Assembly (NCBI GenBank): GCA_963666285.1
Contig: OY762711.1
DNA: 64,000 nt
Reading direction: 5' to 3' (one strand)
From: Sedimentisphaerales bacterium
GTDB taxonomy: Bacteria; Planctomycetota; Phycisphaerae; Sedimentisphaerales; SM23-30
Every line of letters starts with the position of its first letter. The stretch's first letter is position 1. Shown piece after piece: positions 44,264 through 51,335 of this stretch. The position numbers were made by a program, and so were the translations under genes. A model generated the notes under the pieces. It was not told the origin of the DNA. It did not search any database and saw only the letters and a program-made list of their open reading frames with translations.

Positions 44264-46366
44264 TTAGTTTACCGTTGTTTCGTATTTCACGCCTTCCGGC
44301 ATTAGTTCAGGAACATTAACAGATACGCCATAATCTCCAGACGTTTGAGCTGTAGAATCAACAGCGACAAATGAAGTCAAATCACTCATAAGATTATAAT
44401 TTAATGCCGTTACAAGTATTTCAGAGGCGATGCTATCATTACCTGAAATTACCAATTTATTATTCAACATCTCGATCTTTTTGCGAGCCCAGATGGCAGC
44501 AATGCCGTCATGACGAGTATTGTCACTGAATTCAGCAGGAACGGTATATTCCTGATCCAGGCTACCAACCCTACCGCTGACAGTAATATTGCACTTTTTG
44601 GTATTTTTACACTTTCCGGTTATAACTACTGCCCTGCCGGCAAAAAGGTCTGGGACTTTTTGGGGCCATACTTCGGCAACTTGCATATCACCAAAATTGA
44701 TAGAAATATCTGTCAGTGCAGGATGGGCAATAGTTTCATAGAAATTATCAACTGGCTCGACCGGACTGTCATTGTGACCAATATACGATACAGCACCCTG
44801 GCCGATAGCTGCCATACGATCAAGCAGATAACGATTAGGCGAACTGCCTATACCGAAGCTGAAAATACGGCTTTCACCGAGCTTTTCACTGATGGCTTTG
44901 AGAATCTCAGCTTCATTACCAATATAACCGTCAGTCATAAATGAAACAATTCTGAAGCGTTTAGGATCATGCTCGAAATCAAGAGCCGCCTTTATTCCTT
45001 CGATCATCATAGTTCCACCACTAACATTCAATTGTTTTACATACTTTAATCCTATATTTATATTCTCCTTAGAAGCAATAACAGGTTTGCTACCAAGCCT
45101 GGAAGCATTATTACTGAACTGGATAATCTGAAAACTATCATCCGGTCCCAAACGCTTAAGAGCACGACTAATGGCTTGTTTCGAAATATCCATTGGCCAG
45201 CCATTCATACTGCCGGAACAGTCAAGTACAAAAATCATCTCCATTGGCACTCGCTTCAGCTGTGTAATGCTTTCCGGCGGATACAGCATCATAGTAAAAT
45301 AACTCCCGTTTTCATCGGAAGTTGTCATTATACCGGTTTTTACCTTGTCACCTGCAACGTTATAACGAAGTACAAAATCCTTGTTTGGGATAGTATCGTT
45401 ACGGGCGATCTGCACATTTACCCGGCTGTCAGAGTTGTATTTTTTCTCAATTATATGGCTGCTGCATACCAAATCTTCAATTTTTACACCGGCATCAATA
45501 TTAACTGCAAGTGAGATATCGTGTCCGCTTCGCTGATCCGGTTTGAGGTAATGAACTTCGCTTGACTGACTGCTGGTTCCGTCTGGTGTGCCGTGGGCAA
45601 CAGCTGCTACGCCGTCAGTTGTATGCGGAGGGTTAAAACGCGGTCCTACAACCATTGGAAAGACAAACTCATACCAACCGTCTTTATAAGCCAGAGTATT
45701 GAAATATTTTATATTGATATCGATAGCTTTGCCTGGCTCTATATTGGCAACTTTCTGGGTGAAAATATTAGGTCGCTGCTGAGTTAGCAGGCTAGCTGTA
45801 TAACCTAACCCACGAGCCTGTTCATAAATCTTCTTAGCTTCTTCTTTTTCTCTTATTACACCTCGAATAGTTCGATCCCCTATTGTCATCAAAAAATCAT
45901 TAACTGCAGCATTTTGAGGTAAAGGAAAGACATATTTCGCTTCAATCTTAACAGCATAAGGATTATGAAACTTCTGCCTTACTTCTACGGTTGCAATATA
46001 ACCCGAGACATTACCATTGACATCAGTATGCTTTAATGGCAATGGTACTTCCTCTTTTTGATCAGGCACCTTCGCAATGCAAGAGCCACTAAGAGGTACG
46101 TCTACATCGCAACGGAAAGACCCTTCACTAATATCAGTTTTTTGTATTACCCATATTTCATCAGCATCAACATTAATAACACCATCTGAACTTGCCAACT
46201 CATGCAGCTCTGCATCACTAAGCTCATTCAGCATACGTCGATTAGCACTCTCAACTGCAAACCTGGCACTTTCTTTGGCTTTATTTAATGCAGGCATAAA
46301 TAATGAAACTATAAATGCAACTATAGCAAGTACAACTAACAGCCATATAATTTTATTGGTTTTCAT
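44264..46366 (-). CDS. VIT + vWA domain protein, paralog 2, with a pilin-like N-terminal helix
   Basis: LPLKHTDV...YVFPLP (VIT); FVLDCSGSM MIDAS motif, MTDG and LMSDLTSFVAVD. Confidence 0.92.
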   Translation of the reverse strand: MKTNKIIWLLVVLAIVAFIVSLFMPALNKAKESARFAVESANRRMLNELSDAELHELASSDGVINVDADEIWVIQKTDISEGSFRCDVDVPLSGSCIAKVPDQKEEVPLPLKHTDVNGNVSGYIATVEVRQKFHNPYAVKIEAKYVFPLPQNAAVNDFLMTIGDRTIRGVIREKEEAKKIYEQARGLGYTASLLTQQRPNIFTQKVANIEPGKAIDINIKYFNTLAYKDGWYEFVFPMVVGPRFNPPHTTDGVAAVAHGTPDGTSSQSSEVHYLKPDQRSGHDISLAVNIDAGVKIEDLVCSSHIIEKKYNSDSRVNVQIARNDTIPNKDFVLRYNVAGDKVKTGIMTTSDENGSYFTMMLYPPESITQLKRVPMEMIFVLDCSGSMNGWPMDISKQAISRALKRLGPDDSFQIIQFSNNASRLGSKPVIASKENINIGLKYVKQLNVSGGTMMIEGIKAALDFEHDPKRFRIVSFMTDGYIGNEAEILKAISEKLGESRIFSFGIGSSPNRYLLDRMAAIGQGAVSYIGHNDSPVEPVDNFYETIAHPALTDISINFGDMQVAEVWPQKVPDLFAGRAVVITGKCKNTKKCNITVSGRVGSLDQEYTVPAEFSDNTRHDGIAAIWARKKIEMLNNKLVISGNDSIASEILVTALNYNLMSDLTSFVAVDSTAQTSGDYGVSVNVPELMPEGVKYETTVN

Positions 46367-46396: not shown

Positions 46397-48943
46397 CTAA
46401 TGTACTTCCTGAACCGTTGTTTCGTATTTCACGCCTTCCGGCACTGGAACAGAAACATTGACCGTTACGCCATGTTCTCCAGAAGTAACAGTAGCAGAAT
46501 CCACGGCAACAAATGAAGTGTAGTTGCTCATAAGGTTATAGCTCAACGCAGTAGTAAGAATAGCGTTTGAAAGATCTGTTGGACCGCCGGTATTGAGCAA
46601 ATTATTCAATATCTCAATCTTTTTACGAGCCCAGATGGCAGCAATGCCGTCATGACGAGTGTTGTCACTAAATTCAGCAGGAACGGTATATTGCTGATCC
46701 AGGCTGCCAACCTTACCACCAACTGTTATATTGCAGTTCTTTGGACTTTTGCATCTGCCGGTAATAACTACCGCCCTGCCGGCGAATAGATCCGGTACTC
46801 TAGGCGGCCATACTTCGGCAACTTGCATATCGCCAAAATCGATGGATATATCTGTAAGTGCAGGATGGGCAATAGTTTCATAGAAATTATCAACCGGCTC
46901 GATCGGGCTGTCATTGTGACCAATATACGAAACAGCACCCTGACCGATAGCTGCCATACGATCAAGCAGATAACGGTTAGGCGAGCTGCCAATGCCGAAG
47001 CTGAAAATACGGCTTTCACCAAGCTTTTCACTTATGGCTTTGAGAATCTCAGCTTCATTACCAATATAACCGTCAGTCATAAACGAAACGATTCTGAAGC
47101 GTTTAGGATCATGCTCAAAGTCCAGAGCTGCTTTGATACCTTCAATCATCATTGTTCCGCCGCCGCCATGAAGGCCCTCAAGATAGGTAAGCCCTTTTTC
47201 TATATTCTCTTGAGTTGCTTCGATTGGTTTGGGACCAAGCTGAGAAGCATTATTGCTGAATCTAATGATCTGGAAGCTGTCATCCGGTCCGAGGCGTTTC
47301 AGGGCACGGTTAATGGCTTTCTTTGACATTTCAATAGGAAAACCATTCATACTGCCGGAACAGTCAAGTACAAAAATCATTTCCATTGGTACCCGTTTGA
47401 GCTGGGAGATACTTTCCGGAGGATACAACATCATAGTGAAGTAACTTCCGTTATCGTCAGTAGTTGTCATAATGCCGGTTTTTACCTTATTGCCGGCAAC
47501 CTTATAACGAAGTACAAAATCCTTGTTTGGGATAGTATCGTTACGGGCGATCTGCACATTTACCCGGCTGTCAGAGTTGTATTTTTTCTCAATTATATGG
47601 CTGCTGCATTCCAGATCTTCAATCTTTACGCCGGCGTCAATATTAACTGCGAGCGAGATATCATGTCCGCTTCGCTGGTCCGGTTTGAGGTAATGGACCT
47701 CGGTTGACTGTCCGCTGGTACCGTCTGGTGTGCCGTGGGCAACTGCCGCTATGCCGTCAGTTGTATGCGGAGGGTTAAAACGCGGTCCTACAACCATTGG
47801 AAAGACAAATTCATACCAGCCGTCTTTATAAGCCAGGGTATTGAAATATTTTATATTGATATCGATAGCTTTGCCCGGCTCTATATTGGCAACTTTTTGG
47901 GTGAAGATATTAGGCCGCTGCTGGGTTAGCAGGCTGGCCACATGGCCCCGGCTGCGGGCGGCTTCGTATATTTGTTTGGCTTCTTCCTTTTCACGGATAA
48001 CGCCTCGGATTGTGCGGTCACCAACGGTCATAAGAAAGTCGTTTACCGCAGCATTCTGAGGCAGCGGAAAGACATAGCGTGCCTCTATCTTGGTATCGTA
48101 TGGATTGTGAAACTGCTGAACAACATTTACGGTTGCTATATAACCGGCGATATTGCCTGTAACATCTGTATGCTTAAGCGGTAACGGCACTTCCTCGGGA
48201 TTATCAGGCAGCTTAACAACACAACAGCCGCTGACAGGAGTATTATCGTCTACCGGCACTACCGATTTGGCAGTATCAACTTTAGCTATAACCCATAGCT
48301 CATCGGCATTGAAGTTGTTCAAAACAATTTGATTATTGATTGGTGCTTTCCCAAAAGAATACATCTGAGCCATCACACCACCATCCATACCACTAACGTC
48401 ATACCCAACAATACCCTGGCCAGCTGCGATAGGTTTTGCACTCCCCTTTTCAACAGTTGGATATTCTATTTTTTCTACTGGAGGAATTAGATCTTTATCA
48501 ACGGCCATTAAGTGCATTGTAACATTATGGTCCGCATTTCTGGATTTTTCATGCTGAATCTGCCATAACAACGCCTGCGAATACATATTTCTAAGGTATT
48601 TTGCCTGTTCGTTATAAGGGTCTACAGAAAGCAAACGATCTATAGTGTCAATAGCAGCTTGAAACCTTCTTTGCTCTGCAAACTTATTAGCAGTATGGAA
48701 TAAAGTACTTATAACCTGTACTTCTTGAGCTGCTTCTCTAGCTGAATCTCTGGTTTTATCTATTGCTTCAGTATCAGAACTCCCATGTTCATCAGAGGTG
48801 CCTCCCTGATAAGCAGCAGTATCTCCAGGGGCTGAGACGGTACTATTAATATCATTGCCACAGCCTTGAATAAGCAAGAATGCAGGTATTGCCAGCAATG
48901 ATAATAATAATCCAGTAAAAATTGATTTTCTTAGGTTAAACAT
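46397..48943 (-). CDS. VIT + vWA domain lipoprotein, paralog 1, with an N-terminal TPR-like segment
   Basis: IQGC lipobox and the same VIT and DCSGS/TDG motifs as paralog 2. Confidence 0.92.
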   Translation of the reverse strand: MFNLRKSIFTGLLLSLLAIPAFLLIQGCGNDINSTVSAPGDTAAYQGGTSDEHGSSDTEAIDKTRDSAREAAQEVQVISTLFHTANKFAEQRRFQAAIDTIDRLLSVDPYNEQAKYLRNMYSQALLWQIQHEKSRNADHNVTMHLMAVDKDLIPPVEKIEYPTVEKGSAKPIAAGQGIVGYDVSGMDGGVMAQMYSFGKAPINNQIVLNNFNADELWVIAKVDTAKSVVPVDDNTPVSGCCVVKLPDNPEEVPLPLKHTDVTGNIAGYIATVNVVQQFHNPYDTKIEARYVFPLPQNAAVNDFLMTVGDRTIRGVIREKEEAKQIYEAARSRGHVASLLTQQRPNIFTQKVANIEPGKAIDINIKYFNTLAYKDGWYEFVFPMVVGPRFNPPHTTDGIAAVAHGTPDGTSGQSTEVHYLKPDQRSGHDISLAVNIDAGVKIEDLECSSHIIEKKYNSDSRVNVQIARNDTIPNKDFVLRYKVAGNKVKTGIMTTTDDNGSYFTMMLYPPESISQLKRVPMEMIFVLDCSGSMNGFPIEMSKKAINRALKRLGPDDSFQIIRFSNNASQLGPKPIEATQENIEKGLTYLEGLHGGGGTMMIEGIKAALDFEHDPKRFRIVSFMTDGYIGNEAEILKAISEKLGESRIFSFGIGSSPNRYLLDRMAAIGQGAVSYIGHNDSPIEPVDNFYETIAHPALTDISIDFGDMQVAEVWPPRVPDLFAGRAVVITGRCKSPKNCNITVGGKVGSLDQQYTVPAEFSDNTRHDGIAAIWARKKIEILNNLLNTGGPTDLSNAILTTALSYNLMSNYTSFVAVDSATVTSGEHGVTVNVSVPVPEGVKYETTVQEVH

Positions 48944-48991: not shown

Positions 48992-49449
48992 TTAGTCACG
49001 ATCGGTAAGCCGGTAAGTCATATCAGCTTTTACCTTGTTTCCTTTGGCATCTGCGATGACAACCGGTGTAATTTCGAACTCCGGAGTCTGGTCGCCGGAA
49101 ATCATAAAGTGGAGGCGGGCACATCTGAACTTACCGGAAGGTAATGATTTATCGAGATTGAAAGCGGCAAGTATGATTCTGCCATGATTAAGAGCCTTTG
49201 GGTCGTAATAGCCCGGAGCTTTGAAAGCCTCGCAGTCGCCGCCTTCAACGCCGGAAAGCTTTGCAATACCTGATGTTACCTTAAGTTCGAACTGGTATGC
49301 CGCGATAGACTTATCAGCGGAATCGATTATGATATCGACAGGTACAAACCTGACATTGCTGAAGTCAGCCTGCGGTTCAAGAGCTTTGCCGAAACTGTAT
49401 GTAAGTGCGGTAAAACAAAGGGTTAATATAATAATTGTCATTTTGTTCT
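48992..49449 (-). CDS. Exon 2 of a secreted cohesin-like protein; exon 1 is ATGA at 50172-50169 and the spliced N-terminus is MKNKMTIIILTLCF
   Basis: Signal peptide followed by VPVDIIIDSADKSIAAYQFELK...ARLHF, a cohesin-like beta pattern; the frame is restored exactly by removing the intron. Confidence 0.75.
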
Positions 49450-50168
49450 GTCGAGTAGGCATGTCGCCTCCTTTCATTAATTTAACAAATTCTGAGTTTC
49501 ATTATATTTTGTGCAAGGAAACGCATGCCCCTCACAGAACCGGACTTGAAGATTTCCCTCATCCGGCTCTTCATTAATGCTCACTTTGACGGCTACATAA
49601 GGCAAAGTAATGTGCCTTGTAGAAGTCTCCGATAGAAGACGCTGTGGAACGTTCATGGTTTCTTCCAGTTCAGTGCCTGGCCAATATCCTGTTTCGCCTT
49701 TACACATTAATGCTGACCCCTTCGAGTGCCTCAAACTTCGAAACTCAACAGGCATTACCCTGTTTACTCCTCTACTATGAGTCAGTCCGACTACCAAAAT
49801 GCCATACGGCCGCGTCACGGTTTCAGCTCCTTGGCCGCTTCCTTTCGGAGCACTTCGGTTCTCCCAAGTTCCAATGCAGTCAGTTCGTTTGCCCGCTACG
49901 GACTCAGACCCCGGCTCGTCGATATATGCTCGCCGTATTTCGCATATATCGATATTGGCTTCAGGCATATGAAAACCCTGGCCCGGATGCGATAAGGAAT
50001 AATTTCGGGGCTCAACACCTTCACTTGCGTTGTGGCTGACAAACTCCTTTCCCGGGGCTTCGTACAGTTCGTTACCTCTCTGCACGCCCGGTGCTGTAAT
50101 GGGCGGGTGGCTAGCCCTTACCCATGCCGGATTGGCCGGCTTGACTACATTAGCTTCGCTTGGCGCTC
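49450..50168 (-). mobile_element. Group II intron (719 nt) without an intron-encoded reverse transcriptase
   Basis: Domain V GAGCCGGATGAGGGAAATCTTCAAGTCCGGTTC (49569-49537); domain VI with the branch A 7 nt from the 3' end (CCTACTCGAC); 5' end GAGCG; EBS1 TCATAT complementary to exon ATATGA; short domain IV. Confidence 0.93.
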
Positions 50169-50188
50169 TCATATTATTATCCTTCAAT

Positions 50189-50680
50189 TTAATTTATAAT
50201 CATTGCCAGCTGAGAGTTTAACCGGGCAGCAGCCGCCTGGTCCAGGTTGTTTATCTCAACTGCTTTATTGGCAACTATTTGCACATCAGTAATAGAAAGA
50301 TTATTGTCGTTGTTATAATCCCATTTCCGGTCGTATATGCCCTTGTCACGGATATGGATAGCGAGAGTCATAGCATCGAGTATATCTACACTTCCATCGC
50401 GGTTAACATCCTGCGGGGCAAAGGTTTGGGAATTGTGTAATACAAAGAAAGCCGATATAGCGACAAGCACAATTGCCGCGGCATATCGTAAATAATGTAT
50501 TAGAGGAGATTTACGCCGTTTGTTGAAAGCATCAAAATGAGCTCTGGCTCCCTCTAAAACAGCTCTATCAACATCAAGCGGAAGTTGAGAATCAGTTGTA
50601 AACTCTTTTTTCAATTCGAGTTGCAACTCATCTGATAGTTCCGGGATATCATCAAAATTGTTAATATTATTGTTATCCAT
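50189..50680 (-). CDS. Putative anti-sigma factor: cytoplasmic N-terminus, one TM helix, extracytoplasmic dockerin-like domain
   Basis: Directly follows the ECF sigma gene; YAAAIVLVAISAFFVL TM; DVNRDGSVDILDA...DYNNDNNLSITDV duplicated Ca-binding loops. Confidence 0.78.
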   Translation of the reverse strand: MDNNNINNFDDIPELSDELQLELKKEFTTDSQLPLDVDRAVLEGARAHFDAFNKRRKSPLIHYLRYAAAIVLVAISAFFVLHNSQTFAPQDVNRDGSVDILDAMTLAIHIRDKGIYDRKWDYNNDNNLSITDVQIVANKAVEINNLDQAAAARLNSQLAMIIN

Positions 50681-50700
50681 GGTTTATGGTCTCCGTATAT

Positions 50701-50729
50701 TTAGACCGCAGGTGAGTAAAATAGTTTCA
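50701..50729 (-). promoter_or_regulatory. ECF (sigmaE-like) promoter upstream of the anti-sigma gene
   Basis: The minus strand reads TGAAACT-N16-GTCTAA. Confidence 0.5.
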
Positions 50730-50744
50730 GAAAAATAAGAATAA

Positions 50745-51335
50745 TTACAAGAATAGTAATATCAAAGCTTTAAGGTCACGGATATTTTTAATAGCAGGTG
50801 AATCTTTAAGTTTTTTGAGAGTTCGATAATAAGTTGTCTTCACACTGCTTTCGGATATCTCAATCGCGGAAGCTATCTCGGCGAGTGTCATATCATCAAC
50901 GAACCGCATAAGGAGTATATGCCGCTGGGTATCGGATAGGTTGTCAAGAAGAGAAGCGAGATGTCGTCGCATTTCGTCTTGCGGCGTTTCGCCAATGGGT
51001 AAAGACGTATCAGGGATGTCAAGCGGCAGGTCAACGGATGAGTACCGCCGCTTACGTTCCTGCTGACGGATGACAGTATTCCGTACTGCCGGATACAAAA
51101 AAGATTTCATGCTGGAAGTAAGCGAAAAACCTGGAAACCGCGTATAAAACCACGTAAAGACCTCCTGGCAGACATCAGCTGCAATATTTTCGTCTCTATT
51201 GGCCAAACGCCAGGCAAGCTGGAAGGTCCAGTTTTTGTATCTCAGATATATACGCTCAAACCCTGCGACATCACCTGAATTAGCAATGGCAATATCGGTC
51301 TGGTCCTGAGCGTTAATATTGGAAGCATCTAACAT
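50745..51335 (-). CDS. ECF RNA polymerase sigma factor
   Basis: GDVAGFERIYLRY, AADVCQEVF (region 2) and LAEIASAIEISESSVKT (region 4). Confidence 0.92.
   Translation of the reverse strand: MLDASNINAQDQTDIAIANSGDVAGFERIYLRYKNWTFQLAWRLANRDENIAADVCQEVFTWFYTRFPGFSLTSSMKSFLYPAVRNTVIRQQERKRRYSSVDLPLDIPDTSLPIGETPQDEMRRHLASLLDNLSDTQRHILLMRFVDDMTLAEIASAIEISESSVKTTYYRTLKKLKDSPAIKNIRDLKALILLFL

Follow-up and report, generated by a model that had tools for sequence, protein, structure and literature searches.

Members of the IIB1 lineage of bacterial group II introns occupy initiation and termination codons (Michel et al., 2007, Biochimie, as cited in Gomes et al., 2025, PMC12584367). The lineage is defined by an insertion of 300-700 nt near the 5' end, at the base of domain I, its studied members lie in the groEL stop codon, and that article gives the means by which start and stop codons were colonised as unknown (PMC12584367). 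RT-less group II introns, i.e., introns without a reverse transcriptase (RT) gene, are mobilised by the protein of a related intron in the TeI3/TeI4 system of Thermosynechococcus elongatus (Mohr et al., 2010, PMC2882425), and the same has been described for the RT-less dnaN introns of Trichodesmium (PMC12584367). Group IIC introns, in turn, home to transcription terminators or attC hairpins (PMC12584367). Here, we analysed a 64,000-nt stretch (the window) of contig OY762711.1 from Sedimentisphaerales bacterium (GenBank assembly GCA_963666285.1), a member of the Planctomycetota, in which positions 49450-50168 of the minus strand very probably constitute a non-autonomous, mobile, RT-less group II intron from a lineage that homes to the translation start region.

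Like the IIB1 introns, this element belongs with bacterial group II introns that are tied to start or stop codons instead of to the sequence of one gene. However, it lacks the 300-700-nt insertion, being 719 nt in total with 33 nt before the Rfam domain I match, and the IIB1 account, in its available sections (PMC12584367), names no loop resembling an anti-Shine-Dalgarno (anti-SD) sequence, no SD-ATG pair in domain VI, and no stop-free reading frame. With TeI3/TeI4 and the Trichodesmium introns it shares many identical RT-less copies alongside a small number of RT-encoding ones in the same genome and families set apart by retargeted exon-binding site (EBS) loops, whereas the excerpted reports place those introns within other introns, insertion sequence (IS) elements, a tRNA gene, and the interior of genes, not at sites made up of a ribosome-binding site (RBS) plus start codon. 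An in-phase restart signal in domain VI, as found in the window intron, is likewise not among the features that the excerpts describe for TeI3/TeI4. The likeness to group IIC is that of an endonuclease-less lineage that uses a generic functional motif at many loci and lands with little harm. As PMC12584367 summarises them, though, group IIC introns recognise a DNA hairpin with very short intron-binding site (IBS) pairings and land after genes, whereas the start-site lineage uses a 5-6-bp IBS1 that includes the start codon, plus a candidate SD pairing, and lands at the first codon. A search of the full-text literature that covered Merk 2025 on phage introns, with Michel 2007 and Simon 2008 outside its reach, returned no description of start-site homing together with a domain VI SD-ATG or a stop-free frame.

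A first-pass annotation of the window had proposed, from the letters and their open reading frames (ORFs), that an RT-less group II intron splits a gene directly after ATG-A, and reading the sequence bore out this layout: on the minus strand, an SD is followed by seven nucleotides and ATG-A, the intron runs from GAGCG (50168) to CTCGAC (49450), and exon 2 of the host gene (48992-49449) begins with AGAAC at 49449. Rfam confirmed that the element is a group II intron, with both models above their gathering scores. RF02005 (group-II-D1D4-6) was matched over its whole length (model 1-225 of 225) by the domain I core at 49899-50135 (115.9 bits; gathering score, 49), and RF00029 (Intron_gpII, domains V/VI; model 1-77 of 77) was matched at 49450-49571, with 55.5 bits against 40, its match terminating precisely at the proposed 3' splice site, 49450. 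In the RF00029 alignment domain V lies at 49537-49569, while domain VI (49452-49534) is an extended hairpin whose branch-point A at 49456, 7 nt from the intron's 3' end, is bulged both in the Rfam alignment and in the minimum-free-energy fold. The remnant of domain IV (49572-49712, limits approximate) contains no RT gene, as had been annotated.

The pairings with the 5' exon involve the start signals themselves. EBS1 (UCAUAU, 49967-49972) occupies the terminal loop of a CAGG/CCTG hairpin, as the first-pass annotation had it and as the Rfam structure line shows, and is complementary at 6/6 positions to IBS1 (ATATGA, 50169-50174), which consists of two spacer bases, the ATG (50172-50170), and the first base of codon 2 (A, 50169), so that pairing reaches the 5' splice site. 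For EBS2, the annotation had offered ATTATT (50003-49998); this fits the window copy only, the spacer with which it would pair differing in the other seven copies of the intron in this genome, and we rejected it as a general EBS2. The overlapping and adjacent UUCCUU (49994-49999), which is single-stranded in the Rfam structure line and lies directly 5' of the EBS1 hairpin, matches across copies and is complementary to AAGGA (50184-50180), the candidate IBS2 within the host RBS GAAGGA (50180-50185). This anti-SD-like UUCCUU is therefore our candidate EBS2.

The annotation had called for a search of the genome for sister copies and for an RT that could act in trans, and both were found. Over the full 719 nt, searching the bacterium's own genome gave four intron copies at 100%, three at 99.72%, and one at 99.58% identity, i.e., eight near-identical copies that differ by 0-3 bases. 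The same genome holds one further, diverged RT-less copy of 648 nt and two full-length relatives (FL_A and FL_B) of 1930 nt each, which are 99.9% alike. The RT-less and full-length forms are 85.7% identical over domain I, and the alignment breaks off in the region of domain IV, the position at which the full-length relatives carry a 443-aa RT/maturase (TIGR04416, 340 bits; cut-off 300). Pfam found RVT_1 only in this protein, the endonuclease part being absent, and its best matches among solved structures were LtrA and IIC-type RTs, with similar E-values for the two. The catalytic motif YADD is intact in the RT of FL_A and reads YADN in that of FL_B; only one full-length copy is thus likely to be active. 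Between the two loci (C1 5395338-5397267, L010, and C1 910721-912650, L011), the RTs differ by this change and one further residue. Two fragments of the full-length intron, a 283-nt 3' piece (C1 4809700-4809982, 98.9%) and a 50-nt 5' piece (C1 5748538-5748587, 92%), are probably aborted or decayed insertions. The window intron thus has no RT gene, many near-identical copies, and an RT-encoding relative in the same genome, the features of a non-autonomous derivative, and eight such copies at unrelated genes together with RT-encoding relatives are the signature of a recently mobile, non-autonomous retroelement. The RT of the full-length intron would splice and mobilise the RT-less copies in trans.

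That the intron targets translation start sites, another claim of the first-pass annotation, was upheld well beyond the window: it lies one base after a start codon in 9/9 RT-less copies of this genome and in the 7/7 complete relatives found elsewhere. All nine RT-less copies have ATGA immediately 5' and A immediately 3' of the intron. In seven of the eight near-identical copies, AAGG is found 7-9 nt before the ATG. By comparison, the genome has 6259 free TATGAA sites, of which 749 (12.0%) have an SD-like 4-mer and 169 (2.7%) have AAGG at 7-9 nt, giving a binomial P of ~8e-11 for at least seven of eight. Read in frame from the ATG, the sequences downstream of the eight copies comprise six ORFs of 151-513 aa, one of 84 aa without a family, and one that stops after three codons. 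Five of the six long ORFs have Pfam domains (DUF3472 + GH16; BD-FAE esterase; HlyD family; transglutaminase-like; prepilin N_methyl, the last from residue 1); the remaining one is the host gene in the window. Although cp4 sits at a non-gene site, AAGGA is found 7 nt upstream there too, which speaks for recognition of the motif rather than for survival at genes alone. Three loci (cp4, L002; the diverged copy, L009; FL_B, L010) are in or beside a short purine-rich repeat with several ATGA motifs, which may be a non-genic decoy target.

Comparison of the two forms of the intron points to the parts of the ribozyme that read the target. What distinguishes them is concentrated in two loops, that of EBS1 and a second one, which reads AUUAUUCCUUAU in the RT-less and UUAGAAAUUAA in the full-length form; the complement of UUCCUU is AAGGAA. 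The RT-less form has UCAUAU as its EBS1 and the full-length form has UCUUAA, and the 5' exon of FL_A ends in UUAAGA, i.e., both sides have changed with pairing kept, which fixes the EBS1 assignment and the 5' boundary. Among eight aligned start-site introns, the UCAU/AUGA core is kept in all eight, with a G-U pair at a GTGA site, and UCCUU is present in the second loop of seven; a full-length copy away from an SD-ATG site has AGAAAUU there. We propose that the target would be read by pairing of EBS1, UCAU(A/U)U, with (A/U)(A/U)AUGA, by a further base pair with the invariant A at +1, and by pairing of the anti-SD-like UUCCUU with the RBS at a slightly flexible distance.

Several observations weigh against this last element. 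The conserved UCCUU does not co-vary with individual targets, leaving direct SD pairing unproven; the distance from AAGG to ATG ranges from 7 to 9 nt, a variation of 2 nt that is unusual for an IBS2; AAGG is absent at one near-identical copy (cp8) and at the diverged copy; and outside this genome AAGG occurs at 6-9 nt in only 4/9 relatives, with any SD 4-mer in 6/9. We regard direct pairing of UUCCUU with the SD as standing at about even odds. The same facts, except those on cp8 and the diverged copy, would favour a narrower recognition in which only UAUGA, followed by A across the insertion point, is read by EBS1 and one further pair, with the SD a passenger and insertions elsewhere lost; the restart cassette described below would make insertions at start sites uniquely harmless. 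We consider this unlikely, since the 12% of free TATGAA sites with an SD-like 4-mer leave many that must be intergenic or dispensable, yet seven of eight very young copies, the non-gene copy included, have AAGG at 7-9 nt. Moreover, the full-length copies, which have a different second loop, are not at AAGG sites.

Endonuclease-less introns insert into the lagging-strand template. By GC skew, replication of this genome starts near 5.73 Mb and ends near 2.70 Mb, and each of the 11 full or near-full copies is oriented along the direction of replication, compared with 108/164 (66%) of the free AAGG-N7-9-TATGAA sites (P ~0.01 for the 11 copies; 0.035 for the eight near-identical ones). This orientation fits insertion into the lagging-strand template, which would take place at replication forks, as expected for introns without an endonuclease. 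Strand bias has been reported by type of RT (Miura et al., 2022, PMC8919778).

To place the intron among its relatives, we considered RF02005 matches in 151 sampled genomes of the phylum, 28 of which, this genome included, have one. Reading of 22 printed 5' flanks of such matches showed only two (L034 and L040) at an SD-ATGA and most at sites of other kinds; start-site homing is thus the habit of a sub-lineage, not of the whole RF02005 family. A protein-guided scan of species genomes yielded one complete copy, in a metagenome-assembled genome (MAG) of the Sedimentisphaerales, and three copies at contig ends in MAGs of the Phycisphaerae and Planctomycetota, and a search with a 22-nt domain VI motif yielded 17 metagenome stretches. 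In the complete relatives, i.e., the one in the MAG and six on metagenome contigs, the intron follows a start codon plus A in 7/7 (ATGA in six, GTGA in one). Of 21 downstream exons, 13 are open ORFs of at least 60 aa, seven stop within 30 codons, and one is cut by a contig end. Ten of the 13 ORFs have Pfam domains: position 1 of the DHDPS profile falls at residue 3 in one, and position 1 of Aldolase_II falls at residue 6 in two. Also among the ten are an IS transposase, a sulfatase, and two GFO/IDH/MocA oxidoreductases, the last three each following what reads as an arginine-rich, signal-like N-terminus. Since Pfam domains recur in these ORFs, with DHDPS and Aldolase_II beginning at the profile start, the junction is the true N-terminus of many unrelated genes, and start-site targeting across the lineage is real. 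Separately, a complete 4-Mb genome of the same phylum (G032) has 10 RF02005 matches, five of which share the same score, a hint that a single intron family has burst there as well; the sole site inspected there (L037) is not at an ATGA.

Excision of the window copy would restore ATG-AAG-AAC (MKN...) to the host gene, and this N-terminus, predicted in the first-pass annotation, matches two intron-less orthologs, P0123 and P0124 (79% and 66% identity), which start MKK and MKN. The annotation had also noted that the 5' end, GAGCG, differs from the consensus GUGYG, so that activity was not guaranteed. The departure is real, and although it counts against our reading, it amounts to one base and is no bar to group II membership. 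GAGCG is common to all 11 full or near-full copies of the genome, and among the closest complete relatives GUGYG is found in 5/7 and GAGUG in the others; reading of the printed flanks gave GAGCG or GAGUG for the relatives L029, L030, and L062. The worry is eased because copies bearing GAGCG appear to have spread recently. As for transcripts, one of seven sequencing runs is on record as RNA (share 0.06), and it contains only short pieces of related introns, 90-95% alike or less. The locus itself is covered by contigs only, in which no 49449-50169 joint is seen, which speaks neither for nor against splicing.

This lack of junction evidence, the non-canonical 5' end, the lack of an RT of its own, and an existing gene call (P0122) that starts at the ATG in domain VI and not at the host ATG would all fit a copy that no longer splices, its host protein being made only from the domain VI ATG. 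We find this improbable. Retrohoming needs an excised intron, and eight GAGCG copies differing by 0-3 bases have spread; domains V/VI score above the Rfam threshold with the branch-point A in place; and the genome encodes an RT with an intact YADD. The recent spread of the copies argues that the intron splices. It should be weighed, on the other side, that action of the RT in trans is our deduction, with one of the two RTs reading YADN and domain I only 85.7% identical between the forms.

The second unusual property of the intron is its relation to translation. The reading frame set by the host ATG contains no stop in 231 codons (49480-50172), running through domains I-VI, compared with 15 and 20 stops in the other frames, and a frame stayed open as long in 0/20,000 dinucleotide shuffles. 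It ends within domain VI on a restart cassette (49460-49479) composed of the tandem stops TAA TGA (49479-49474), an overlapping SD, AAAGGAGG (49474-49467), and an ATG (49462-49460) in phase with exon 2. Since the intron lies in phase 1, any insertion at an ATGA puts the domain VI ATG in frame with exon 2. The domain VI fold is very stable (-29.6 kcal/mol, z -5.45; 0/200 shuffles as stable), with the SD paired to an internal UUUCCUU and the ATG placed within the basal stem. The same SD-masking pairing is predicted in 20 relatives, with one-sided changes only, and their 3' strand is fixed by the search motif. In some fungal mitochondrial group II introns, such as yeast cox1 aI1/aI2, an ORF in frame with the upstream exon encodes an RT/maturase. 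The window intron resembles these in that the frame of the upstream exon continues into the intron, and differs in that no protein can be recognised in this frame, which runs up to a signal for restarting at exon 2.

A related arrangement is present in five of the seven complete relatives. There, the host ATG is followed by 30 codons, a stop, GGAGG, and an ATG 17 nt on (or an overlapping ATGA); then come 195-201 codons, a stop, AAAGGAGG, and an ATG 17 nt beyond that stop. The second frame of one relative continues into exon 2. When the observed substitutions were placed at random, the 585-nt frame remained open in 1.8% of cases (111 changes, towards this genome's variant) and in 3.7% (79 changes). 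We also considered that the RT might commonly be translated in frame from domain I. A search for proteins of 406-2000 aa containing the frame gave none at E <= 0.001 among 618 candidates, and hence none in which it is fused to an RT, which counts against our account being general and leaves the idea resting on one truncated case. That case is L034 (600-1352, minus), a full-length relative at an SD-ATGA in which a 250-aa ORF starts in domain I and reaches the RT domain without a change of frame before being cut off beside an unrelated ORF; it is the sole case seen of an RT fused to a frame through the ribozyme.

Taken with the insertion sites, these features suggest, less certainly than the mobility of the element, that the intron is built to be harmless when unspliced. 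A ribosome would load on the intact host RBS and ATG, read the stop-free frame through the whole ribozyme, melt the domain VI hairpin that masks the strong SD and ATG, terminate on UAA UGA, and restart 17 nt on, in phase with exon 2. The restart product would have MPTRQ in place of MK at its N-terminus, and unspliced transcripts would be productive and polarity avoided. In its complete form, our proposal is that the lineage uses the RBS and start codon as its homing site, through an anti-SD loop and an EBS1 that reads AUGA, and combines this with a translation-transparent ribozyme with restart, so that spliced and unspliced transcripts alike would yield the host protein; we hold it tentatively, giving it somewhat less than an even chance. 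The open frame is not general: from the host ATG, a stop is met at codon 6 in the diverged copy and both full-length copies, and at codon 31 or 32 in all seven complete relatives, one of which (L062) lacks a continuous reading chain. The relatives were selected by the 22-nt domain VI motif, and the second restart cassette is therefore present in them by selection, and the substitution simulation ignores the constraints of RNA structure.

A frame so much longer than chance could alternatively encode a functional protein. A protein-database search with the 231-codon frame gave 254 matches at E <= 0.001 among 383 candidates, including a 230-aa homolog with 71% identity that starts MRAP at the host ATG; many others, of 195 or 131 aa, have their start within domain I. 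However, all of the 120 matches listed are without a precomputed Pfam domain, and the similarity tracks the conserved ribozyme, catalytic domain V being itself covered by the frame. Relatives switch frame in domain I and have differing starts, hence the 131-, 195-, and 230-aa forms, and the frame is closed in the diverged and full-length copies. We judge a functional protein to be very improbable.

The first-pass annotation had seen in this locus a domesticated splicing switch, in which EBS-IBS pairing competes with ribosome loading to control a signalling gene, and the setting of the host gene could be cited in its favour. The host protein is secreted, of about 153 aa, and neither it nor its two orthologs had a Pfam match even at E 5. 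A model built on an alignment of three sequences (mean predicted local distance difference test score, pLDDT, 73.3; predicted template-modelling score, pTM, 0.64) found almost exclusively cohesin modules in Foldseek (best E 3.8e-4, template-modelling scores 0.5-0.6), and the fold is predicted to be cohesin-like. Directly upstream on the same strand (50189-50680) is a gene for a single-pass membrane protein with a dockerin type I domain, preceded by an extracytoplasmic function (ECF)-type sigma factor gene (50745-51335, minus), and the host gene is followed by two paralogous VIT + vWA proteins (46397-48943 and 44264-46366, minus). Modelled as a complex, the cohesin-like and dockerin parts scored 0.73, with 0.00 for the best control, a mark reached by 116/157 solved complexes and by 2/215 mismatched pairs; three runs agreed in at least 87% of contacts, with partner pLDDT of at least 69. 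This result may reflect mere likeness to solved cohesin-dockerin complexes. The stretch 48992-51335 could possibly be a sigma/anti-sigma module with a cohesin-dockerin contact, and the earlier guess of a signalling protein does not seem absurd.

The switch itself did not survive comparison across the genome. It has in its favour the position of the host gene in this ECF sigma/dockerin/cohesin-like cluster and the pairing of EBS1 with the start codon and of the UUCCUU loop with the RBS, which means that folding of the ribozyme and binding of the ribosome must exclude each other. However, the eight copies are 99.6-100% identical at unrelated genes, one of them at a non-gene site, RT-encoding relatives are present, the two orthologs of the host gene do not have the intron-derived N-terminus, and nothing about the intron is specific to the host locus. 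A gene-specific switch is therefore highly improbable, while competition between EBS-IBS pairing and ribosome loading throughout the lineage is plausible. We take the intron for a selfish element that lands where the cost is low, and not for a regulator fitted to one gene; the host locus is ordinary, and the interest lies in the lineage.

The survival of bacterial group II introns is ascribed to the avoidance of genes or to efficient splicing. If our proposal is true, this lineage would represent a third way, namely landing on the one generic signal common to all genes while carrying a spare copy of it, which would explain its low-cost residence in genes for DapA, aldolases, sulfatases, and pilins. 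Ribosome loading and ribozyme folding would contest the same few bases, which is testable, and an intron that is short and portable, has a generic target that can be predicted, and brings its own restart signal would be of interest for gene-targeting tools. Genes hit by the element are now called from the intron's own ATG, so their annotated N-termini would be wrong. More broadly, the stop-free frame would bear on how introns and translation could coexist before the two were separated in eukaryotes.

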